A stretch of DNA of 64,000 nt from the NCBI GenBank assembly GCA_001662655.1, contig KV460228.1; one strand, written 5' to 3'. The notes under the pieces were generated by a model that was not told the origin of the DNA, did no database searches, and worked only from the letters and a program-made list of their open reading frames with translations. Positions 690 to 41,373 of this stretch are shown one piece after another (the stretch's first letter is position 1; each line of letters begins with the position of its first letter). The translations under genes were made by a program, and so were the position numbers. Source of the stretch: Pseudogymnoascus verrucosus (taxonomy: Eukaryota).

Positions 690-2671
690 ATGGCAACAGA
701 AAAGGTCGTCCCGACTGAGCATGAGCTCCAAGGACTTGACCTGAGCAACCCTGAGGTTATCGAGCTCATCCACCATGCGCAAGAGAGCGATGCAGCCGAC
801 CGCCAGTTGACGGTGCGCCAGGCCTTGAAGAAGTATAAGAAGGCTGTCTTCTGGGCCATGTTCTTGTCTACTAGTCTCATTATGGAGGGATATGATCTTG
901 TCATTGTCAGTAGCGCTTCCTGAATCATTGATTGACTTCTCCGTTTATTTAGAATGGTCGCCCTAATGTCTCCTACAGATCACTTCATTTTACGCCCAGT
1001 CACAGTTCCAAAACCGATTTGGCTCATTCGACGAAACATCGGGAACGAACCTCATTACTCCCGCCTGGCAATCGGGTCTGTCTAACTCAGCTGTTGTTGG
1101 CCAACTTGCTGGGCTGTTGGTGAACGCATACTGCCAAGACCGATTTGGTTGTCGAGTAACCATGATGATTTTCATGGGGTGGATGACAGTGACGATCTTT
1201 ATCCCTTTTTTTGCGCCGTCGCTGTCCGTCTTAGCCTTTGGGGAGGCGATGTGTGGTATTTCGTGGGGTGTCTTCCAGGTACGCCTCGACTTGACTTGCA
1301 GAGCGCAGTAACCCGGCTAATATTGTTATTACCATCTAGACCCTCTCTACAGCATACGCTTCCGAGGTCGTTCCCACTGTCCTCCGACCGTATGTCACCG
1401 CCTATGTCTGCATGTGCTGGGGTGCCGGTATTCTCCTCTCCTCTGGTGTCGTCCGAGCCGTAGCAGGCGTTGAGGGCGATCTCGCTTGGCGTCTCCCGTT
1501 CGCCCTCCAATGGGTCTGGCCCATCCCTCTAATGATTGGCGCATACCTCGCCCCTGAATCTCCCTGGAATTCAGTCCGGCGAGACAAGGTGGATGAGGCA
1601 AGAGAAAGCCTGATGCGTCTTCGCGAAGATTCGCCAGATAGAGAGCGGGAAGTGAACGCAACACTGGCATATATCAGGCATACGACGGCTCTAGAGAAAG
1701 CCGAGACGGGTGATGCAAGCTTCTGGGAGTGTTTCCATGGAACTAATCTTCGACGAACTGAAATAGTAATCATGCCCCCTTTCCATCACGCCGCGTCGGG
1801 AATGTGTAACTGACTATTTCTCTTTTATTTTAGAACTGCGTAGTGTGGGCCGCCCAAATCCTTTGCGGCAATGCCATCCTTGGCTACTCTGTCCTCTTTC
1901 TCCGCGCTGCGGGGTTTTCTGAAATCCAGGCGTTCAACATCAACATCTCCCTTTCCGCATGCTACATTGTCGGCGGCGTAATTTGCTGGTTTCTGTTTCC
2001 CCATCTCGGCCGAGCAACAATCTATATGAGCGGGCTAACATTTATGTTCGTCTGTCTCATCACCATAGGTGGTCTCGGTTTCGCTAGTGGAAAGAACATC
2101 GAAATGGCAATTGGTATCCTCTTGGTCATATCAACACTGTGCAATATGATTACTATCGGACCTGCTTGTTATCCCATCGTGGCTGAGACACCGTCAGGGA
2201 GATTGAGGTACAAGACGATAGCCATCGGGAGATTTGTATACAACCTCACAGGAATTTTCTCCAATTCCGTCACACCGCGCATGCTTTCGCCTATTGGTAA
2301 GAATCCCTGGTCAAGCTACTATAACCTCTTGAGTAATTCTGACCTATGCTGACGTCCAATCCATAGGCTGGAACTGGGGCGCAAAATCAGCACTCTTTTA
2401 TGCCGGAACCAATCTCCTCTGCAATATCTGGTGTTGGTTCCGCCTTCCTGAGACCAAGGACCGCTCCTTTGGCGAGATTGACTTGCTCTTTGATAATAAA
2501 GTTCCAGCAAGAAAGTTCAAATATACTAAAGTAGACCGTAAGTTGCTTAAACCCTATACTTATTATAGCGAGGACGATTCAATAGCTAACTCACAAATCA
2601 TAGAATTTGCCCGGCAGAACGATTATGAAACGAAAGTAGCGGCTGTTGAGCACTTGGAGAACCAGCCTTAG
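690..2671 (+). CDS. MFS sugar porter, maltose/alpha-glucoside permease type (6 exons)
   Basis: Motifs STSLIMEGYD, YASEVVPTVLRPYV, WRLPFALQWVWP, PESPW, CYPIVAETPSGRLR, LPETKDRSFGEIDLLF; introns approx. 906-978, 1279-1339, 1766-1833, 2297-2367, 2538-2603. Confidence 0.93.
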
Positions 2672-4049
2672 TGATCGTGTATATTAGAAAGTTTCATTTA
2701 CTTGTTTGTCAGTTATGTTATAATATATTCATTATTCACAACTAGGCTGTGGTTAAGCTAGAATAGTTATAAGTGAACTGTGAACTACAGCTTCTAGAAT
2801 CAAGTTTTGGACAACGCGTACACCAGAGAGAGCATTCGTCCTCCAAGGCTAGCTGAGCGAGCCCAGTCCCTCTTAAAGCTGTTTCACTGAAGTCTCGCCA
2901 TGCTTTTTCTCGCTCCTAACGTGGCTCCAATCATGACTACAGCATGTGAGGCCGGATGAACGCTATGACGTCCAATCGTACAACATCGATGAATTAAGTG
3001 TGGAACTTTAGACGAGGCTGTTATTTGTGGCGTTCTATATGCAGGTAGGTTTGTCGGGCGGGCTGGGACTTTCGTTGCCACCTACTCAGAGGGGACAGGG
3101 AACGTACTGTGAGAGCACGCTGGGTAGCTGTGTTGTGTCTGAAGGGGGGAAAAAATGCGTTTGCACTGATAGAGTCGGGGGTGTTTGAGAAGTTGGATGG
3201 TGGTTGGTGGCTGAAGAGTAGATGGATGATGATTATTGGTTTTACGTGAAGGTCATTGGGGCTGAATGTGCCCTACTCCTTGGCCATCCGTTAAGATCAC
3301 ATAAGATCACCTGCCAAGGGTAAGGCTGACTGCACCTTTCCCATTTTGTTCTGTGGCGCATCCTACGGCAACATCCCACCACAGCATCCTACCACAGCAT
3401 CCTGGAAACATGCATTGGCATTACATATGTCTGCCGAGAACACCACAGAAGAGACAGAGTAAGCATACCCTGTAAGCCATATTGTGTATGTTTCAACTAT
3501 TCTCCTACGTTGTACTCTACATACAGCACACGCACAATCTTGGTCGTGCCGCTTACTTGCTTGGCAATGCCCACCGGAATGGGAATACAACCAGTATCCT
3601 TTATGGCGGCATTCTCCAACCATATTAGCGTCAATATATGGCACCGCTAGTTTCCGCCACTACTCAAGCCAAGCCTCATCCCGTCCCTGCGGAGTACTCT
3701 ACTGTTCTACTTTCTTGGAGCTGAGAGAAGCAAAATGCTCACTGTAGCTTCTCTGTGGCTCGTGAATTGGCACCCTCCCACAAAGTTTCGATACCAGTCT
3801 ATCATACCTAACTAGCGCATCTACTAGAAGCTAATGATTCCCCCATATTACTTTTGTCTCCTCAGAACTGGGCTGTACATGCTGCACGCCGGCGATCCCC
3901 AGGTGAGAAAGTCTCGGCCCAGCCCAGTCTTATAATAGCACTTGTATTCGGCGTTGCATTCAAAATGGCCTGTCCCCCCACGTAGCGCATAATGCATTGC
4001 GACAAAAAACCTCCTTTTTTGACACTTCATCGCGAATTTTGCCATTGCG

Positions 4050-5419
4050 ATGATACTGATATATCTATACTTCATGGTCCTCGGCGTCGCTATCGCACAA
4101 AGACCAAGTAACAGTTCGATATGCGACTACTATACGGAGGTCAAATATGGCTCGGCATCCGAGGCGAACCAGCTCAAAATGATGCAAGGCATAGTCTCTC
4201 TGGCCTTTGGTGGACCGGCGGCGGCCTCGATCGAGTCAGGCAGTGTCCCGGATGGGTTGACGGGGATCCTCAATCCAGGTGTTCATGATGGCGTTCCCGT
4301 CAATCTCTTGCCATTTTTCAATGGTAGCATTGCCTCGACGAACCTAAACAACCAAGCTGTCGGCATCAATTGGCTCGATGATGGAGGTATTCTACCACTA
4401 GTCAACTTCATGAGCGGCAAGACAGAGACTGTTGAACTCAGGAATACGACAAATGAATAGTATGTCCCCCCTCGTATAACCCTACCGCAATTGTATCGAT
4501 CATATGCTAACTAATGCCTAACAGCCGCCTCTTCGGCCATTTCTACACTGCCTTCGCCTATATATTTGGATGTTCAAATCCACCTGCTAGCCCTACAACT
4601 GGAAGACCCCCCAATCCCGCCTACGTCCACAAGTTCATGAGTCTCAACTTCACTGAGATCGGACATTTCATCAACCAGCTCACCCTCTCATCCGAGTACT
4701 ATGGCTTCTCGACGACAGACGCGCAATCGTTGGCTCTGCTCATGAACAGCCGGTACAATATTCGCTGCGCTCCAGCCGTCTCGCTGAATCCAAAGCAAGC
4801 CCCTCAACTCTTTTCGCTGTGTCAGGACCCAACGTGTCCATTGGCCGTACCTAATTCCGACTGCGAGGCGTACGCCAACCTTAGTTCAGAAGGTCCATCT
4901 TCATCTTCTCCTTCTCCATCGGAAAGTTCCAGCTCGACATCTGGTCCGACTACGATAACCAACTCCGAATCATCCTCCTCCCCAACAGAATCCCCGAGTG
5001 CTGCAGCCACATCTTCAGGCTCGAAAGGCCTTAGCACTGGCGGAATCGCAGGAGTAGCCATTGGCGGCGCCGCACTTCTCGCCTTCATCATCGCAGCCAT
5101 CTTCTACCTCCGCCGCAAGCGCCGACCCAAGACTCCGCCCCCACAGCCCGAACAGCCCGAGACCCGCTGGACGGGCAACACGGAATCCTTCGACGGCTCA
5201 CAGGCGGGGGGCAAGGGCTATCTGTCGCCGCAGAGCGAGAATTTCACCGCATACTCGCCCAATAGCCGCGACTCTTACATCAGCCACGCGCATACGTCAT
5301 ATATTCCGAACCCCGTGGAGCTGGCGACGCCGCCGTTGCCGCAGGGGCCACCGGCGGAGTTGAGTGGGGAGGTTGCGGTATCAACTGATGAGTATCGGAG
5401 GAGTCGGGGGATGATTTGA
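4050..5419 (+). CDS. Type I membrane protein: signal peptide, Cys-containing ectodomain (possibly truncated-globin-like), Ser/Thr stalk, TM helix, RRKRR stop-transfer, Pro/Tyr-rich tail
   Basis: Intron 4460-4524 (GTATGT..CTAAC..CAG) joins two ORFs in frame (TNEY/RLFGH); GLSTGGIAGVAIGGAALLAFIIAAIFYLRRKRR. Confidence 0.85.
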
Positions 5420-26816: not shown

Positions 26817-27403
26817 AGTTGAAGGTAGCGGGTTTTTAATTATGGATGTGTCGAGATGGGGAGATGTTGCTGCTATGGGGAAGTCGGCAAGTGAGGCCTG
26901 TTATATTGCAATAGAGATCTTAGGGAACTATATCAAACGGTGCGATTTCAAAGGGACGAAATACGGCGACCTTATAGGGTTACACAGGTACATCATGTCA
27001 AACCTAAATCAGTGGATTTAAATCCCAGCTTCCAGAATGCTGAAAGGTGCGCCTTGCTTCCCGTCTGATGGTGGTGTATTATTTCTAAAACTAGGTTCAT
27101 ATTAAGTGTTGATTTTAACAAGGATGGCATCAATTGCTTCTTACCCCGCTAAGCTCCGACCAAGAGCGATCCCAAGTTCTTTCGTCGGGTCTAAATACAT
27201 CAGTTGATCCTTGCACCTTTCGTTCTCGAAAGTGAATTTCTGCCTGAAGACAAAACTCTAGCACGTGCCTCCAGCTCGCTGACACCGCATACTCAGCCAC
27301 ACGATGGCACATATTCTAGCCTTGAATTATATCCTCTCAATGCTTCTCCTACATGCCATGCCACGCTTAACGTAATCGGGTTCATCCTTCTTCACAAGAC
27401 GTT

Positions 27404-29692
27404 ATGGACCCACTAAGCATCACCGCCAGCATTATCGCCATCCTAGACCTCACAACCAAAGCAATCCAATATCTCGGCGACGTTAAGGATGCCCCCAAAG
27501 CCCGTGCGAGCCTCGCAATCGAAGCCTCGAACCTGTACTCGCTCCTCATGAACCTACGATACCGGCTTGAAGAGGGACGATCTAATGAGGCGTGGTACAC
27601 GGCGGTGAGGTCGCTCGGGGTGCAAGGTGGGCCGCTTGATCAGTATAAGGATATGTTGGAACGGATTCAGCATAAGCTTGGCGGTGGGGGGAGTTGGATT
27701 AAGGAGGTGGGACAGTCGCTGGTGTGGAAGTTTAGTAAGGAGGAGGTTAGGGGGTTGTTTGTGAGTATGGAGGGCTTGAAAGGATTGATTGCGGTTGCGC
27801 TGGAGATGGATCACTTGTAAGCTGCTGTCATAGATATGAGGGATAGATGTATGCGGTTGCTCACCTTTCTTAGCAAATTGTCGCAGGCGATCAAAAGCGC
27901 GGTGGATTGTCAGGGAAGGGAGTTGTCGCTTCAGATCGATGGTCTCGCTCAGGATTTTCGGGACGAGAAGTTTATGCGTGAGCAGGAGAGTATTGGTGAG
28001 GTTTTCGGCCTTCGCTGAGATCGCTTTCGACTAATTCGGTTCGCAGATGGCCTTCATCACGAACTCTGCGGTTGGCTCAGTCCTTGTAATCCGGAGATGT
28101 TACATTTGAAAGCCTGTGGACACCACCATAGTGGTACGAGTGGGTGGTTCCTCGAAGGCTCGCTCAAATGGCTGGTTCAAAATAAGTCAGATTCGTCTGC
28201 GATACTGCTGCTAAAGGGAACCTGTGAGTTCCCCATCCGTGTCCTTAGTAGGCCTAAAAAAATTCTAACTCTCGTAATTATACAGCCGGAACTGGCAAGA
28301 GTACTCTCATGTAAGCCGGCCTGCTAAACTTCCAAATATTGTTCTCACTCTACTAGGTCACAGGCTATTAAACAAGCCAAATCCGACGTGGGACAGGACC
28401 CGGTCCTCTACTTCTACTGCTCTTTCGACGACCAGGCTACTCAGGATCCAGTTAACATTCTCGCTTCTTTCATTGTCCAGCTTTCGCACCAGGTACCTGA
28501 GCTACTCGACGACTTTATGCCAGAATATCTCAAGGCGAAACAACACTCTACACCTGCGCAATTATCAATAGAGCAACTCGAAAAGATTTTCATGGCGCAT
28601 ACGCGAAGTCTACCTCACGTGTTTTTGTTTCTTGATGCCGTCAATGAATGTCAGGATGCCTCCGCCATTTCTGATCTCCTCGTTCGACTAGCACTTCGCT
28701 GTAGCAATCTCAGGATGCTCATTACAAGTACTCGGGAGTTAAACAATCCCGAACCGAGTGGTACGCTTCAAACTCTAGTAGTGCAAATGGACTCAAGTAG
28801 CGTGACTAAAGATATATCCATCTTTGTCGATGACATGCTTGCACTAGATCAAGGATTAAGAAACGTTACTATGGAACTGAAAGCTGATATTAGATCAACG
28901 GTGATAAGTAACTCAGACGGCATGTAAGTTTTCTAACAATATACCATTTAAACATCCGGTCCATCTGCTTATATCCCTAATAGGTTCAGGTACGCTAGGT
29001 GGCTTATGAACCATCTCGCCGAGCAAAGGACCGGAAGAGCCATAAGGAAGGCTCTTACTGAAATGCCTACCAGTTTGAACGAAATGTACGCCATGCTTCT
29101 AAACAGAATACCCAAATCATCTCCCGATCGCGAACTCCTCCGCCGCTGCCTCGTATGGCTTTCTTTCTCAACCAGGCCTCTGAGGCTAGCAGAGCTGGCT
29201 GAGGCAGTTATTCTGGAGGACACTAGCGAGAATGTCGATAGCGACGACAGACTGCATTCGCCGGAGATCCTTCTTGATATATCGCAGGGGCTGTTTGAGG
29301 TTGATGGTAACAGTGGACGAGTTGCTCTTGCGCATTCATCTGTGAAAACATTCCTGCTCTCTAAGTGGATACAAAATACCTCGGTTGCGGATTTTTCGAT
29401 GGATGACGCGAAGGGGCATGGTGAAATTATTCGTTTGTGTCTGACCTACCTGACACTTTCTGGATTTATTAGTGGATGGGGAGAAACAATGGAGGTTACG
29501 GAAACTAGATTCAAAGAATATCCTCTCCTCGAATACGCCGTTGAAAACTGGCTAGGCCATTCAAAAATCGCCAATTACGAGTTCCAGATGTGGTCCAAGG
29601 TGACCGAAAACACTAGTTCCCACCACCTAAATTTAGGTATGCGGACCCTCGAATGGTGGGCAGGCTATCACTGGGGGCGTTCAAATTTTTAG
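27404..29692 (+). CDS. Fungal NLR-like protein: HeLo-like/SesA-type N-terminal helical domain + NACHT + winged helix, no C-terminal repeats
   Basis: MDPLSITASIIAIL..WKFSKEEV; Walker A GTSGTGKS and Walker B LFLDAVNEC; RPLRLAELAEAV, LAHSSVKTFL; introns 27817-27873, 27996-28046, 28224-28285, 28311-28356, 28924-28983. Confidence 0.85.
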
Positions 29693-32004: not shown

Positions 32005-34862
32005 CTAAGAGAAGCAGGAACTGCACGCTAGAAAAGCAAGATCATCTGACAGAGAAACGGCATCCGGCCGGACTTGCGATATCATGCGCTTCGTGAGTTT
32101 CACCACTTCGCCGCATTCCGTCTCCTTGTCGCCAAATGACAGCTGCTGCAGCCACTCAACAGCCTTAACCTCGTTTAGCCCGCGATAGCTGTATCCAGGC
32201 TCCTCAGGCGACTTCTGAAAAATATCCCACACCTTCTTGCCAGCGATGACGGTTAACATCTCAACATAGACGCAGCCAAGCGAGAAGACATCCGTCGTTA
32301 ACGTGCGGTCGCCCCCGTCGGCGACCTCTGGTGCGCTATAGGGAGCAGTATGGCCGGTTGGTCCCCTTGTCACGTCGCCTGGACTCTGGAAGACGTGTGC
32401 CAAGTCAAAATCGGTGTATAGGATATTATTGCCATGCACGAGCAGGTTAGAAGGCTTAATATCCTTGTGTTTAACCTGATTGCCATGGATGTACGCAAGC
32501 CCATGTGCTAGACAGCCTAGCCACTGAACTAGACTTGCTGGGTCGGCAACGGCACCGCCCTCGTTGTTCATGTACTTCTTTAGATCCCACTCGGCGACGG
32601 GCTTCATTAGAATGAAGGAGTTCGGACTTCTTGAATAGGACCCTAGAATCTCGACGATATGAGCATGCTTGAGTTGCTCCATGATTAGCACTACGTCTGC
32701 AAACTGCTGCCGCCGCGCTGCGGGGATGCGCATCGTCTTGCGCGCACAAATGGAACCGCTTGCGAGGCTCTCTACCATGTCTACATAGCCCATGTTGCCA
32801 GACCCGAGCTCCCTACGGAACTCATACGGGTCCGACTCACTGCCATTCAGAACAATATGCCGCGGTAGGTCTAATATGTCGCCATCCAGGCCCACCTCGT
32901 CCGTGTTTAGTTCTTGCATCCTAGCCCGTAGGAGATCAGCGATCTTGGTGTGCCTGACAAACTTAGCAGCCTGTAGGGCCGTGCCGTGCAGTCCGCAGCG
33001 GATGAGCGGGTCGGCGCGGTATTCTAGCAAGAGCTCGACAATTGGCAGGTGGCCGTGGTAGGCTGCCGCTTGGAGGGCCGTGCCATGAGTACCGCCGGTG
33101 TCATCGATGTCGCTCTTTCCGATTTCGAGGAGTTTGCGGGCCAAGGACGTTAGGCCTAAACAAGAGATGTAGTACAATGGCGTCGAAACGCTAGGAGGTC
33201 TGTTCGAGACATTTATCTTAGAAATCCAGGGCCGATCAGGGTCAAAGAGCCTAACCCAATTCTGTATGTATAGGCCTCCGGGGCCGTGGAAGAATTCGGT
33301 GACTACAGGGAGCAGGCGGTCTAGGTTCTCATGCGAAATGCTGGCCTGTTCCACGTGGTAGTACCAGAAGCGCGCGGCATAGTCGGCAAGCGGGAACCGC
33401 AGGCGGTAATCTGATGAGCTGAGAGCATCAGCGCTATCTAAGAGGCATAAATACCGCAGACACGCGTGGGCGATTTCAAAATGAGGGTTCCAGTGTGACA
33501 GCTCGACATCCATATAGGTGCGGATTGTGAAGTGGGCGAGAGACACGCCTTGGTAGCTCTCGTCGGCAGTTTGAATTGTGGTCGTATGTAATAGTTCTGG
33601 GCATATATTCAGGACATCTTCACCCTGGAACAGCTGCTTCTTGGCTGACACGATTGGGTCGACTGCTACGTTAATTGCGACTACTTCTGATACTTCGTCG
33701 ATCCGTAGTGGGCGGCGCGTGTACCCTACCCATACTAGGACCTTCTCTGTATCCGCTGATCTCTGGAGAGACCCGTCTACATATGTCTTATACAAATCTG
33801 CCAGACCTTGTGGCAAAGTGTATAGAGCACTTTCGACCTGTTGTAGTTTATGGAACCGCTTAAGCTCTGCGAATACGAGGGTAGCCCATACGAACCTATA
33901 TATTCATTAGTTAGAACGCCCCCGTGTAGTCCTACAGTTATTGTAGTGACCTGTTAACTCGCACTTACGATCCGTGGGCCCTATCACCTACCATTCTTAT
34001 CACATGCTCCTTAGTAGTATCTGGCCAGTCTAATTGTTCTGATACCCTTGCTGTAATTAGACTAAGGATATCCTGATGATTTCCATCGGCGGTGATAACG
34101 CAATGCAGATGATGCTTTCTCTTTAAGTTATAGATAGACGGGAGCGGCTGGGCGGATAAAAAGAGGTGCAGTCCGTCTAGCTTCCAGTCGAGCATACTCT
34201 CCAAGGTGGCGATGAGGCGGCGGATATCGGAACACTCGTCAACCGCGTCGATGACGATAAATACCTTAGAGAACTTCCTCACAGCAACGGCGAAGGCGCG
34301 AAAGAGCAGCTCAAACTGCGGTTGCTCGCCGTTGGCCACATCCCCGAGGACCCTCAGCTCGGTAGGTACTACACCCAGCTGGTGGCAGAGCTGGAAGAGC
34401 ATGGACGAGAACAAACTCTCATCTGTAGCCCGCCGTAGGTCATTCATCTTAAAATAGTAGTACAGGACAGCCGTCGCCGACTCGCTAGACCTATGCTCAT
34501 CTCGCAGTGCATCGATGACCGTAGAACTAGTTACTTCTTAGTGATAACTCTTCATAATTAAGATTGGTTAGTTAGTAGGACTTACCATAAGACTGTCTTC
34601 CCGGTGCCAGCTGTATTAACAGAGGTCGAGTTAAATCAAGACTAAAATAACAACCCTAACAACACACCTCAAAGGGCCGAAACTTACGTGATCCTGCTAG
34701 CAAGAAAGCCGTATTCTTCCCTGTCGACCACGCTTGGTACTCCGGGTGCTCGAACAGCCAGCAACTAGCACTTTCGACGATGTTAACAGAAGCAGACACA
34801 TGTGCCTCTTCCTGGAGCTGGTGATTTAGCTCTAGGAATTTAGGCAAATGAGATATATCCAT
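32005..34862 (-). CDS. NLR-like protein: NACHT + winged helix + ankyrin repeats + C-terminal Ser/Thr protein kinase; no recognisable N-terminal effector
   Basis: Walker A GSPGTGKT split by introns (34687-34611, 34585-34527); Walker B IVIDAVDEC; intron 33968-33896; RPLRIDEV, GTALQAAAYHGH; kinase LGSGNMGYV, ARK, HKDIKPSN, DFD, APE, DVFSLG; start codon uncertain. Confidence 0.88.
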
Positions 34863-35163: not shown

Positions 35164-35275
35164 TAGCGTGCGTCACGGGGGACCGACGGTTCCAAACCGC
35201 CGTCTGAAGGTTTTCCAACCCGGACCGGACCGCCCCATGGCCCGGTCTAGGGTCGGTCCCCCGTGGCGCAGGCTA
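35164..35275. mobile_element. 112-bp non-autonomous element (hAT-like MITE) with 24-bp TIRs and 8-bp TSD
   Basis: TAGCGTGCGTCACGGGGGACCGAC...GTCGGTCCCCCGTGGCGCAGGCTA (2 mismatches), flanked by GCTACAAT at 35156-35163 and 35276-35283. Confidence 0.8.
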
Positions 35276-35511: not shown

Positions 35512-37606
35512 ATGGATCCTGTTTCTTTAGCCGGCCTTGGTCTTGGTGCAGCTTCAATCACTTTTCAAATATTTGAAGGGATTAAGATGGGTTCGTAACG
35601 AGCATAACCCTTCCCCAACGGGACCTCCATCCTAGATCGTATGCTAACGTCGCATATTGGTAGGTTACGGGATATTTGAGGATGCGGCCGACATGCCAGA
35701 GCACTGTGAATCGCTAAGGCTGAGGCTGCGGCTCGAATGCACTCGCCTCCTAGACTGGGGCGATCTTTCTGGCCTTTCGGAACCCGAGAATCATTCGAAG
35801 TTCGATCGGAAGCTAAAAGCAAATCGGGCAACTATTATAGCCCTTCTGAGCGAGATGAAAATGATAATCGACAAGATCCAGAAGATAAGTCTACGATCTG
35901 ACTGTATCCTGCTCCCCGGCATCGACATCGCAGCGGCCCAAGGAACTAGTATGGCTAAAGAGCTGCATCTAGCTAATGGGAAAGAAGATCTTAAGGGCGT
36001 CGACATAGAGCAGTTTTGCAGCATTCTTAGGCCCATGGAGGACCAGCTCAACAACAAGAAGAGAACCCTATTAACAAGGAGTTTGAGACGAGTTGTAGAT
36101 ATCGGCCAGGGTATAGCAGACGTTGCTAAACAGCCCGGCCGCATTCGCTGGGCCCTAAGTGATAAAGAAGCATTCCAGACCCACGTTAGGCGTCTAAAGG
36201 AGCTAACAGACTACCTACATGAGACTCTTGGTGATCACCAGATGAGCATCCTGATTGAACAGACGAAGGAGACGTGCATGGCTATGCTGCAGATGACGAG
36301 CTCCATTAGCGAGATGAAGGAGCTTATTGAGGCAGTCGAGATTGCAACTAGCCATGCCAGTATTGAGTCGGAAACACGCGCCTGGCTGCCTCTTGGTGAC
36401 TTTGTAGATAGACAAGCTTCAGTCAGCGAGTCTGTCTCAACAATCTCTATACTAGAGCGTCGAGAGACGCTATTTACCCAGCTGACAGAATTTCGATATC
36501 ATGTAGCTAGCCTACAAATTGGTGTGCCAAAGAATAGAGAGGTAACGGGTCTTAAACTCCAGGGGAGGGAGCTAGATAATCTAAAGTTCGACCACACCAG
36601 GGCGACAGGCAACGGCCGGACCCCGGCAACCTATCTGGGAGCGGCAGCTTGGGTAGAGTGGAAGGCCTACCGCATCACTCGACATAAAGATGAGCATGGC
36701 AAATTCTATTACGGCCCTACGCCTCTCGCCACGGCCAACCTAGAGCGCTTAGCAGCCATTCTCCACATAGACAAGCGGCCAACACAGTTCCGCGTGCCGC
36801 TATGCGCCGGATACTTTGATGACGAAATCAACGAGCGCTTTGGGCTTATCTATCAAGTGCCCTACGCAACACCGCAGTTGGCAGAAACCATCTCTCTATC
36901 CCAACTATTGCTACAGCAAAATAGCCTCCCCCCTCTCCAGAGCCGCATCCGTCTTGCCAAGGAGCTTGTGACCTCTCTCTACTTTCTACACGCCGTCAAC
37001 TGGCTACATAAAGGCCTCCGCGACGAAAGCATACTTGTCCTAACGCAGAATGGACGTCCGGACTACTCCCAGCCATTCATCAGCGGCTTCGAATACTCCC
37101 GCCCGGACGAAACTGACCTTACTACGACCGCGGCTCCGGATACTTGGGCTGTATACGCCCATCCAGACTACCAGGGCTTCGACAGGAAGACTTACCGCAA
37201 GACCTTTGACATTTACAGCCTAGGAATTATCTTGCTTGAGATTGCCTTGTGGAAACCGGCCGAGGAGATTCTCGGCTTTGGGCAGCCCTCTGTGTCTACT
37301 GGAGAGAAGAACAAATCTCCGGGAACAATGGACGAGTCTCAGGAAAAGAAGGTTTATTCGAAGGATTCTCTACAAGATCTCAAGAACATCAGGAGCCGCC
37401 TTCTCATAGACGAGCCGTCTCTGCTCGAGCAAGTCCGCGCGACGATGGGATCTCGGTATCACGACGCGGTGAAATCCTGCATCGGTGGTCTTGAGTATTT
37501 CAACCTTCCGACTGAAGCCGACGAGACTAGCCCAGTCATAGCGACTCTACTCCAGCAGGCGTATCTCCGTTTAGTGGTGGATATCTTACGAAGTATCAGA
37601 GTGTGA
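35512..37606 (+). CDS. HeLo (HET-S-like) domain + pseudokinase (MLKL-like architecture)
   Basis: Exon 1 MDPVSLAGLGLGAASITFQIFEGIKM, intron 35591-35663; LRLRLRLECTRLLDWG, IRWALSDKEAF..V.RLKELTDYL; kinase-fold WVEWK, LHKGLRDESIL, GFEYSR, YAHPDY, DIYSLGIILLEI. Confidence 0.88.
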
Positions 37607-39487: not shown

Positions 39488-41059
39488 CTAATACATCTCT
39501 TCATCAGAGTCTAGATGTAAACCAACAGGCTCATTTCCCGAAAGAAATTCCCCAACGCCATAATTTCCTACAGCCAGAGCCACGTCCAGCGGAGTCCTGT
39601 CACGACCGTCCCGTGCTGCCGTATTAGCGCCCCTTTCAACTAGGAGCCGCACTATATCAATAGGTATCCCTCTGGCGCCGGCGGCGGCATGAAGCAGTGT
39701 GTTTCCCTTATCCAGCTTAGCATTCACATCCGCACCTTCGTCGAGCAGGATCCTCATGGCATCTAGGCGACACTTGCGCAACGCTTCGAACAGCGGCGTG
39801 TACCCGCCACCTTCGAAACACCTTAAATTGACATCACTACCGGCATCAATCAGCAACTTCAGCGCATCTAGTGGCGCATAAGCTGCTGCTCGATGAAGTG
39901 CTGACAAGCCTTTGACGTTTGTTGATGTAACCTCGGCACCTGCCCCTAGAAGAATTGTGATCATGCGAGCATCCGCCCCCTTTGCCGCCCAGTCAAGCAC
40001 CGCTGCCCCCAAATTCGTTCTAGCAGAGACTTGACTCCCATGGCTGATGAGCAGCTCGCACATCTCGTGTTGATTATATCTCGCAGCCCTATGCAACAAG
40101 GTTGACCCATCTTTTTCCCGACTCATGGGATCGCAGCCCATGCTTAGTAGAAAACTGACCAGCTCTAGATTCTTTGATTTGACAGCCATATAGATTGGCG
40201 AGCGGTTTTCGCGGTTACCCGTGCAGACCTCTGCACCTCTGTTAACAAGCAGCATTACGATATCTAGGTTTCCGTTGCTACAGGCGAAATCTAGAGGCGT
40301 CCATTGCCGTCCGTCAAAAGTGGAGACGTCTGCACCTCTGTCAATAAGCAGCTTTGCGACATCTATGTTTCCGTTGCTGCAGGCGAAATGCAGAGGCATC
40401 GATTGCCGCTCTTCGATAGCAGAAACGTCTGCACCTCTGTCAATAAGCAACTTTGCGACATCTAGCTCTCCATTGCTGCAGGCGTAATGCAGGGCGGTCC
40501 ATTGCCGCTCTTCGATAGCTGAGACGTCTGCACCATGGTCTAAAAGAAGCTGCACGACTATAGGGTAGCCAAACATAGCAGCTAGATGCAGCGGCGTGCG
40601 ACCTTTATAACCGGTGATAGTATAATCCGCTCCATGGCTGAGGAGGACCTTGACGGCATCATAATGTCCGCTTTGAGATGCAGCTGCTAATGGCGTTGTG
40701 GAGCAGTCGCCCTGGATCTGTGGGCAGGACACCCACTTCAGGGCGAAATTATGTTCTACGTGCAAGAGATATTCGAGGATATATACTTGGTTATTCCCGG
40801 CCGCGAGGTGGAGCAGCTTGCCCATGTCGATATCAGATATTATTCCAACGGACTGCGCATTCTGTAGAGTTTTGAGCTGGCCCGTCCATGCTGCCCAAAA
40901 TGGCGACTTTTGGTCGACCGCATCGCGACGGTAGAGCGAGGGGGTTAGTAAATTGTAGAGGTATTGATTTACCCTTAAGAACGCCGCTAGCTCATTTTGT
41001 GAATGGAGTTCGCCTCCAATAGCTAGTAGAAGCTCGGCTGGGAGATCGAGGAGCTGCAT
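39488..41059 (-). CDS. F-box-like N-terminus + ankyrin repeat protein
   Basis: MQLLDLPAELLLAIG..LRVNQYLYNLLTPSLY; about 12 ankyrin repeats. Confidence 0.92.
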   Translation of the reverse strand: MQLLDLPAELLLAIGGELHSQNELAAFLRVNQYLYNLLTPSLYRRDAVDQKSPFWAAWTGQLKTLQNAQSVGIISDIDMGKLLHLAAGNNQVYILEYLLHVEHNFALKWVSCPQIQGDCSTTPLAAASQSGHYDAVKVLLSHGADYTITGYKGRTPLHLAAMFGYPIVVQLLLDHGADVSAIEERQWTALHYACSNGELDVAKLLIDRGADVSAIEERQSMPLHFACSNGNIDVAKLLIDRGADVSTFDGRQWTPLDFACSNGNLDIVMLLVNRGAEVCTGNRENRSPIYMAVKSKNLELVSFLLSMGCDPMSREKDGSTLLHRAARYNQHEMCELLISHGSQVSARTNLGAAVLDWAAKGADARMITILLGAGAEVTSTNVKGLSALHRAAAYAPLDALKLLIDAGSDVNLRCFEGGGYTPLFEALRKCRLDAMRILLDEGADVNAKLDKGNTLLHAAAGARGIPIDIVRLLVERGANTAARDGRDRTPLDVALAVGNYGVGEFLSGNEPVGLHLDSDEEMY

Positions 41060-41373
41060 TGAGGAGTTGCATCGATAAAAATTATCTGGATTTATCGTTC
41101 TTGGGGGCGAAGCGCAAAGTCTATGTTGACAAATTTGCAGTCAGACTGTTTTTTGAAGCGCCTTGGGGAACAACTTTGGTTGGCTGGCCAAGATTTACAT
41201 TACATAGGACACCCCATCACATTTCCCTTCACAGCGCAACAGGGTCCTATTGCCATAACTCCACCATCAAGCTTATACTATGCCTTATATATAGAAGGGT
41301 CTCTTATCCGAGCCCCAAGTCCCACTACCATATGAGAAATTGACCAGCCTTGTGGTTATCGTGGCGTATAATT

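Follow-up and report, generated by a model that had tools for sequence, protein, structure and literature searches.

How might a fungal protein that joins a HeLo domain to a dead kinase domain be switched on? The question is raised by a gene in a 64,000-nucleotide (nt) stretch of contig KV460228.1 of Pseudogymnoascus verrucosus (GenBank assembly GCA_001662655.1), hereafter called the window. An earlier note, made from the letters of this DNA alone, had described the gene as a HeLo-pseudokinase with MLKL-like degenerate catalytic motifs. Here, we find that it stands head-to-head with a gene for a NOD-like receptor (NLR) that ends in a protein kinase domain, and that the linkage of HeLo-pseudokinases to particular kinase subfamilies is non-random and conserved. 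This partner gene, absent from the earlier note, is a more telling feature than the MLKL-like layout.

The HeLo-pseudokinase gene has two exons, with the ATG at 35512 and a stop codon ending at 37606, which splice to a product of 673 amino acids (Table 1). The Gly-rich hydrophobic helix that had been assigned to a small first exon is indeed encoded there: left unspliced, the 79-nt exon 1 runs into a stop after 28 codons, the spliced model is identical to the public P. verrucosus protein P0242 (VE01_05657), and in the intronless relatives L075, L102, L057 and L104 the same N-terminal segment lies within one reading frame. The exon also completes the HeLo domain. Without it, the Pfam HeLo match covers model positions 20-205 (E 2.3e-23), whereas its inclusion fills in the 19 initial model positions and extends the match to positions 1-205, residues 8-247 (E 8e-29; 101 bits against a cut-off of 23.2). 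A profile of 26 family N-termini matched the HET-s/S structures 2wvo, 2wvq and 2wvn at E 5e-10 to 2e-9 and, apart from these, nothing below E 0.04, in agreement with the likeness to HET-S proposed before. In the model of P0002, a protein 91% identical to that of the window, the first helix spans residues 3-33 with residues 1-10 at low confidence, and this hydrophobic helix is conserved in full-length homologues. The Pfam domain MLKL_N (4HB) was not found, as the N-terminus matches HeLo alone at E <= 0.1. At the other end, the kinase C-lobe runs to residue 673 and no match to the prion-forming HET-s_218-289 motif was obtained; a RHIM or amyloid motif was not evident at either terminus, although no tool-based search was aimed at such motifs. 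PDB structure searches were dominated by kinase matches and barely probed the N-terminal part, and a search of the Atlas with the HeLo part alone gave nothing above TM 0.35 by query.

Judged by its sequence, the kinase-like domain is a pseudokinase, because the Asp residues of HRD and DFG are lost and there is no conserved Gly-rich loop. Its AlphaFold2 model (predicted local distance difference test score 87.8) has CRAF as best structural match (VIA-align; Z 22.1, root-mean-square deviation 2.8, 256 aligned, matched range 318-673), and the motif DIYSLG is found at residue 542. In a profile alignment, HKG falls on HKD and GF[ED] falls on DFG. The catalytic loop of the 120 homologues listed reads HKG in 104, HKA in 4, HKS in 3, HES in 1 and HKD in 1, with 7 unparsed; DFE is retained in 2 of the 113 whose loop was parsed, and both catalytic Asp residues occur together in none of the homologues examined. 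The loop glycines are rare as well, with G342 in 5 and G344 in 4 of 46 aligned relatives. The HeLo-pseudokinase layout, the catalytic loop without Asp, ISGFEYSR in place of DFG and the missing Gly-rich loop, all noticed earlier, are thereby confirmed. The proposal that WVEWK occupies the VAIK position holds in so far as the motif lies on the predicted beta-3 strand and is highly conserved (W356 in 46/46, E358 in 45/46, K360 in 42/46), but K360 may not be the VAIK Lys: the N-lobes did not align by profile, and the position corresponds to either Glu358 or Lys360. Kinases of the tyrosine kinase-like (TKL) family have the beta-3 pattern W-x-G-x-x-V-A-V-K. Read by this pattern in the register V-W-I-E, Trp356 would sit at the Ala and fill the adenine pocket, with Glu358 at the VAIK Lys. 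In the activation segment, at least one of columns 513-515 is Ser or Thr in all 46 aligned relatives.

The neighbouring NLR-kinase gene lies head-to-head with the HeLo-pseudokinase gene, their start codons 649 bp apart, and encodes 882 amino acids identical to P0122 (VE01_05656). Pfam recognizes NACHT (32.7 bits, cut-off 26.7), NPHP3_N (4e-32) and Ank_2 (9e-13). The NACHT-associated profile starts at residue 35; the mere 34 residues before it have no Pfam match, and the NLR-kinase therefore has no N-terminal effector. An N-terminal amyloid motif did not turn up either, although no scan was aimed at amyloid motifs. The C-terminal kinase domain carries K639 as beta-3 Lys, D731 as catalytic Asp and D748 as Mg-binding Asp. 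Orthologues of both genes adjoin in Chaetomium globosum (CHGG_10769/CHGG_10770, 65% and 55% identical), three further record pairs hold orthologues of both on contigs of equal length and with matching divergence (83/80, 81/78 and 49/43%), and the pair recurs in locus L030, which has nothing but the pair in common with window positions 20001-50000. The pseudokinase orthologue of that locus (L030:4048-6104) falls into three frame pieces, reflecting introns, sequencing errors or decay.

How general is the pairing? In the P. verrucosus genome, a search with the domain yielded 11 matches, located at 10 places; a Gcn2-type kinase (RWD plus kinase) on C17 and a broken copy on C18 were dropped, leaving eight intact paralogues. 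Kinase genes were detected by profile, as pattern-only detection misses intron-split loops. For five of them, a kinase gene lies no more than 3 kb from the matched domain, head-to-head in the window and on C29, C20 and C4 and tail-to-tail on C13, where chance would place a kinase in 1.9-3.4% of 4.5-kb intervals (128-226 kinase candidates in 30.2 Mb). The reverse search agrees: the C29 partner kinase gave five matches in all, the top three being the head-to-head partners on C29, C23 and C20 (E <= 8.5e-21) and the next at E 4e-12, and the C13 partner kinase found only itself and the C4 partner. All five members found of these two kinase subfamilies are paired. C4 and C13 (L018, L024/L025) represent a second class of pair, in which the pseudokinases have unassigned N-termini and the neighbouring kinases are of another, intron-split type; the two partner kinases are each other's only strong match, and on C13 a gene for an APH-type phosphotransferase is also head-to-head. 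The broken copy on C18 (L026:5118-9104, L009) adjoins a C2H2 zinc-finger gene, and the unpaired C14 paralogue (L016:4615-9173) precedes an F-box-like and a HET-domain gene.

A wider sample is provided by 80 of 250 confirmed metagenome loci, which group into 33 clusters at 70% identity; 4.5 kb of upstream sequence is available for 21 of these. Counts use the longest-flank member per cluster, regardless of intervening genes. In 12 of the 21 clusters the 4.5 kb upstream include a kinase gene, which is head-to-head in 8 and on the same strand in 4 (the match in L046 being partial), compared with 1/18 at 4.5-9 kb upstream, 3/22 near downstream and 0/18 far downstream. At 90% identity the corresponding numbers are 12/25, 1/20, 4/28 and 2/24. 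Among the 12 clusters left out for short flanks, five still show a head-to-head kinase (L030, L037, L040/41, L043, L047). Housekeeping-looking neighbours, namely kinases of HRDLKTSN type (L055/L069/L072), which we take to be CDK11-like, and a SNF1-type kinase (L082), were counted but not treated as partners. In a quick tree with long branches, from which L030, L038, L039, L071, C7 and C13 were left out, pairing recurs on most deep branches, all nine rows with enough flank in the 19-row group that includes the window are head-to-head pairs, and the unpaired loci fall mostly into two short-branched clades.

The partner kinases keep core catalytic residues and carry interchangeable tails. The catalytic Asp, Lys and Asn and the DF of DFG are present in 21/21 aligned partners, and the beta-3 Lys in the 19/19 that cover it. 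NACHT and ankyrin repeats precede the kinase in the window and L030, ankyrin repeats follow it in C29, C20, L049, L062 and L077, and others have tetratricopeptide repeats (TPR; L098) or no recognized tail. Kinase and pseudokinase distances co-diverge weakly (Mantel rho 0.26, p 0.007, 18 pairs), which shared host ancestry could equally yield.

Some loci are found in intact and broken versions. L098/L101 on one side and L103 and L104/L107/L108 on the other are near-identical head-to-head pairs, with flanks 91-98% alike. In L098 the kinase-TPR gene is intact and a 1,850-bp insertion lies early in the HeLo-pseudokinase gene, with a similar insertion in L101; in L104, L107 and L108 the pseudokinase gene is intact and AT-rich DNA truncates the kinase after residue 111; in L103 both genes are open up to the contig edge. 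Such oppositely broken pairs resemble split incompatibility haplotypes, or plain decay. L071 and L048/L053 are the same locus at ~95% identity, and L071 has ~3.9 kb of extra upstream sequence that holds a kinase gene, a presence/absence polymorphism of the partner kinase. The pseudokinase of L071 has changes at otherwise conserved sites.

What could the pair do? We lean towards a two-gene switch analogous to RIPK3/MLKL, in which the NLR-kinase phosphorylates the activation segment of the pseudokinase and HeLo is released. The minus-strand NLR, with NACHT and ankyrin repeats, would be the sensor and would signal through its C-terminal Ser/Thr kinase instead of through an amyloid motif or effector at the N-terminus. 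The plus-strand gene, presumably co-expressed, would encode the executioner, whose dead kinase domain would hold HeLo inactive. A non-self or danger cue may cause the NLR to cluster, upon which its kinase would bind the pseudokinase and phosphorylate the activation segment, with Thr513-515 as candidate sites, in the activating direction. The first HeLo helix, encoded by exon 1, would then be freed and damage membranes, leading to death of the hyphal compartment. The biochemical steps are modelled on RIPK3-MLKL (PMC12881547 section 18) and on HET-S (PMC7889193), and precedents for fungal two-gene sensor/executioner systems are described in PMC12881547 and, for het-V, in PMC9262711.

Several observations weigh against this two-gene switch and have to be set beside the alternatives. 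The alpha-C Glu, present in 16/21 partners, is Val654 in the window's NLR-kinase, and the DFG Gly is Asp750 (DFD, 6/21), because of which the activity of this kinase is uncertain; P0126, a close relative, has lost the catalytic Asp. These replacements, which mark the subclade of the window partner, would fit a kinase domain that serves as decoy, scaffold or restraint: it would bind the pseudokinase, or else a pathogen effector, with no need for catalysis, or would keep the pseudokinase off, and death would follow from a conformational change or lost restraint. An integrated-decoy role is also proposed for the C-terminal kinases of Sordariales NLRs in PMC12258605 (section 20). The presence of the core catalytic residues in every aligned partner makes this an unlikely account, though the foremost of the alternatives, and a strict antidote would be disallowed by the intact pseudokinase genes beside truncated kinases in L104, L107 and L108 if these genes are expressed. 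The hydropathy of the first helix is moderate (peak 1.42 over 19 residues), and the two slow-evolving, mostly kinase-less clades resemble conserved genes more than fast-moving death genes; both would suit a pair that signals without killing, with HeLo tethering a complex to membranes or relaying a defence or developmental signal, as would the finding that plant MLKL immunity is separable from cell death (bioRxiv 10.1101/681015). We consider such a non-lethal role less likely still, in view of the homology to HET-s/S HeLo, the conservation of the hydrophobic first helix and the induction of 2/3 Podospora HeLo + Pkc-like genes during incompatibility (PMC3689799 Table 5).

It is also possible that the linkage carries no function, both genes collecting in immune-gene islands or passively inheriting an old neighbourhood. 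One of six control HeLo loci without a pseudokinase lies near a kinase gene, and because of this immune-gene islands raise the background; a further NACHT gene and an F-box/ankyrin gene lie in the window region; and many family members are unpaired. Unpaired members are a burden for the two-gene switch as well: 9/21 clusters have no upstream kinase, no kinase lies within 20 kb of the paralogues on C31, C14 and C7 (3/8), and of the 5/8 paralogues with a Pfam HeLo match 2/5 are paired, the other 3/8 having N-termini without such a match. Moreover, Ser/Thr at 513-515 is equally conserved whether an adjacent partner is known (20 loci) or not (26 loci), and the p-values for near versus far upstream kinases (Fisher p 7e-4 for 70% clusters, 2e-3 for 90% clusters) are overstated because the loci are related. 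Passive linkage nonetheless appears very unlikely to us, as the enrichment is seen only at the adjacent position and favours head-to-head orientation, all members found of the two kinase subfamilies in the genome are paired, the window and L030 share no flanks, and pairing occurs across most deep branches. That the domain is instead an atypical active kinase regulating its own HeLo is barely tenable: K360 and the His/Lys of the catalytic loop are highly conserved, and HKD and DFE survive in the one and two homologues mentioned above, but both Asp residues are missing here and in nearly all relatives, together with the Gly-rich loop.

Table 1. Coordinates of the gene pair and of the region between the two genes in the window.
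Feature	Position	Strand	Remarks
HeLo-pseudokinase exon 1	35512..35590	+	79 nt; Gly-rich hydrophobic first helix, residues 1-26
HeLo-pseudokinase intron	35591..35663	+	73 nt, GTTCGT...GCTAAC...TAG (branch site GCTAAC)
HeLo-pseudokinase exon 2	35664..37606	+	remaining HeLo, linker helices, pseudokinase domain, stop
HeLo domain	35533..36325, spanning intron	+	residues 8-247; Pfam PF14479 E 8e-29
Pseudokinase domain	36542..37603	+	~residues 320-673; kinase fold nearest RAF/TKL/tyrosine kinase structures
Beta-3 motif WVEWK (residue 356)	36650..36664	+	predicted beta-3 strand
Degenerate catalytic loop LHKGLRDES (residue 474), HKG replacing HRD	37004..37039	+	profile alignment
ISGFEYSR (residue 499), GFE replacing DFG	37079..37102	+	profile alignment
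Activation-segment Thr513-Thr515, candidate phospho-switch	37121..37129	+	alignment of 46 relatives
Intergenic region between start codons	34863..35511		649 bp, candidate shared promoter
Inverted repeat, 24 nt	arms 35164-35187 and 35252-35275		92% complementary, 64 nt apart
NLR-kinase exon 1	34688..34862	-	start codon 34862-34860
NLR-kinase exon 2	34586..34610	-	25 nt, completes Walker A GSPGTGKT
NLR-kinase exon 3	33969..34526	-	NACHT, Walker B
NLR-kinase exon 4	32005..33895	-	helical region; ankyrin repeats, residues 498-583; kinase, residue 610 onwards
Partner kinase domain	32008..32826	-	Gly loop, K639, HKDIKPSN (729), DFD (748), APE; alpha-C Glu replaced by Val654

The inverted repeat between the start codons may be a small element or a promoter structure. 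Around the pair, a second NACHT gene (27371-29692, plus strand; weak PigL_N-type start, NPHP3_N, winged helix) lies tail-to-tail towards the NLR-kinase gene, with no repeat domain in the frames scanned, and a gene with an F-box-like domain and a long ankyrin array occupies 39488-41140 on the minus strand. Judging by labels given on reading the translations, the NACHT genes and the F-box/ankyrin gene form a small immune-type island among housekeeping-looking genes. Among the control loci, L110 has a HeLo gene without pseudokinase and, ~2 kb away on the other side of a cupin gene, a PNP_UDP phosphorylase-kinase fusion (2500-4364, minus strand).

The HeLo-pseudokinase architecture itself is already published and common in ascomycetes, where the family is large; the finding here is the gene pair, an NLR-kinase beside a HeLo-pseudokinase. 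In the literature searched, without supplements and with subscription papers mostly outside its coverage, so that a prior mention is possible, no description of the pairing was found, and the available parts of PMC10197012, PMC9815663 and PMC7885112 give no account of it. The extent to which fungal cell death corresponds to necroptosis is a question raised in reviews, and section 18 of PMC12881547 names no fungal counterpart of the RIPK3 step. The conserved pair names both parts and candidate phosphosites, which turns the necroptosis question into a two-gene experiment, and it suggests what the rare NLRs ending in a kinase, currently read as decoys (PMC12258605), might do. Fungi may thus have a kinase-triggered cell-death switch. 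More broadly, we put forward tentatively that ascomycetes have independently built a necroptosis-like axis, in which modular sensor-kinases phosphorylate a co-encoded HeLo-pseudokinase; this could add a third route of executioner activation to amyloid templating and proteolysis. Each genome would then hold several insulated cognate pairs, and split haplotypes, in which either the kinase or the executioner is intact, could act as incompatibility alleles.

How does the pair relate to known systems? The earlier note had left open convergence on the MLKL architecture or shared ancestry, and had suggested a structural search against MLKL. That search supports the kinase fold but does not single out MLKL: rat MLKL reaches Z 18.8, rank 48 of 50 shown, and although MLKL is among the top sequence matches, the scores of IRAK4 (43.7 bits), LIMK1 (42.4), mouse MLKL (41.0) and RAF (40.8) are tied. 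Shared ancestry with MLKL is unsupported, and convergence on a TKL-like scaffold appears likelier because MLKL is not singled out over RAF, LIMK and IRAK4. In the present comparison of sequences, the window protein is built like MLKL, and membership of the MLKL family is not supported; if the pseudokinase is convergent, the MLKL design would have arisen independently for a third time. The likeness lies in the order of helical membrane-targeting head, linker (brace) and pseudokinase, in the change of DFG to GFE and the missing catalytic Asp, which mouse MLKL shares in the alignment, and in activation-segment Ser/Thr together with a candidate upstream kinase, as in MLKL/RIPK3. The alignment with full-length MLKL (4btf, rank 11) extends over 539 columns, and chordate MLKL is the sole non-ascomycete cluster among those listed in a feature search (score 0.83), a lead only. 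Unlike in MLKL, the fungal head is a Pfam HeLo domain of ~240 amino acids and the beta-3 Lys, which MLKL retains, is possibly replaced; unlike RIPK3, the candidate kinase is the product of the adjacent gene and is joined to a sensor of its own. Plant MLKLs (AtMLKL1-3) likewise combine a HeLo-type bundle with a pseudokinase and are held by the authors to be convergent with animal MLKL (bioRxiv 10.1101/681015). The fungal protein lacks their Ser-rich tail, and the available text of that preprint does not mention a genomically linked kinase; none of them is among the matches listed in our sequence and structure searches, which excludes nothing.

The closest relatives of the window protein are fungal. 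It is a member of the HeLo + 'Pkc-like' or HELL-pseudokinase proteins (Pfam HeLo plus DUF7580-like), to which the 120 homologues listed belong. Three such genes of Podospora are tabulated in PMC3689799, a figure legend of PMC12881547 calls the architecture reminiscent of MLKL, and neither source, in the parts available, gives an activator, partner or function for these proteins. As in the NWD2/HET-S and NLR-amyloid-HeLo clusters (PMC7889193), an NLR gene adjoins the gene for a HeLo executioner, but the executioner here ends in a pseudokinase instead of a prion-forming domain, and the NLR carries a kinase at its C-terminus and lacks an N-terminal effector. The fungal gasdermin/protease clusters (PMC12881547) are similarly composed of two genes, with an enzyme and interchangeable sensors (NLR, ankyrin, TPR) beside a pore-former; in the pair described here, a kinase replaces the protease and a HeLo-pseudokinase the gasdermin. 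In Podospora het-V, finally, a modifying enzyme adjoins a HeLo protein with a reader domain (HET-Va methyltransferase and HET-Vb MLKL/HeLo-TUDOR), and activation by a covalent mark has been proposed (PMC9262711): the mark there is methyl and its reader TUDOR, whereas here they would be phosphate and the pseudokinase.

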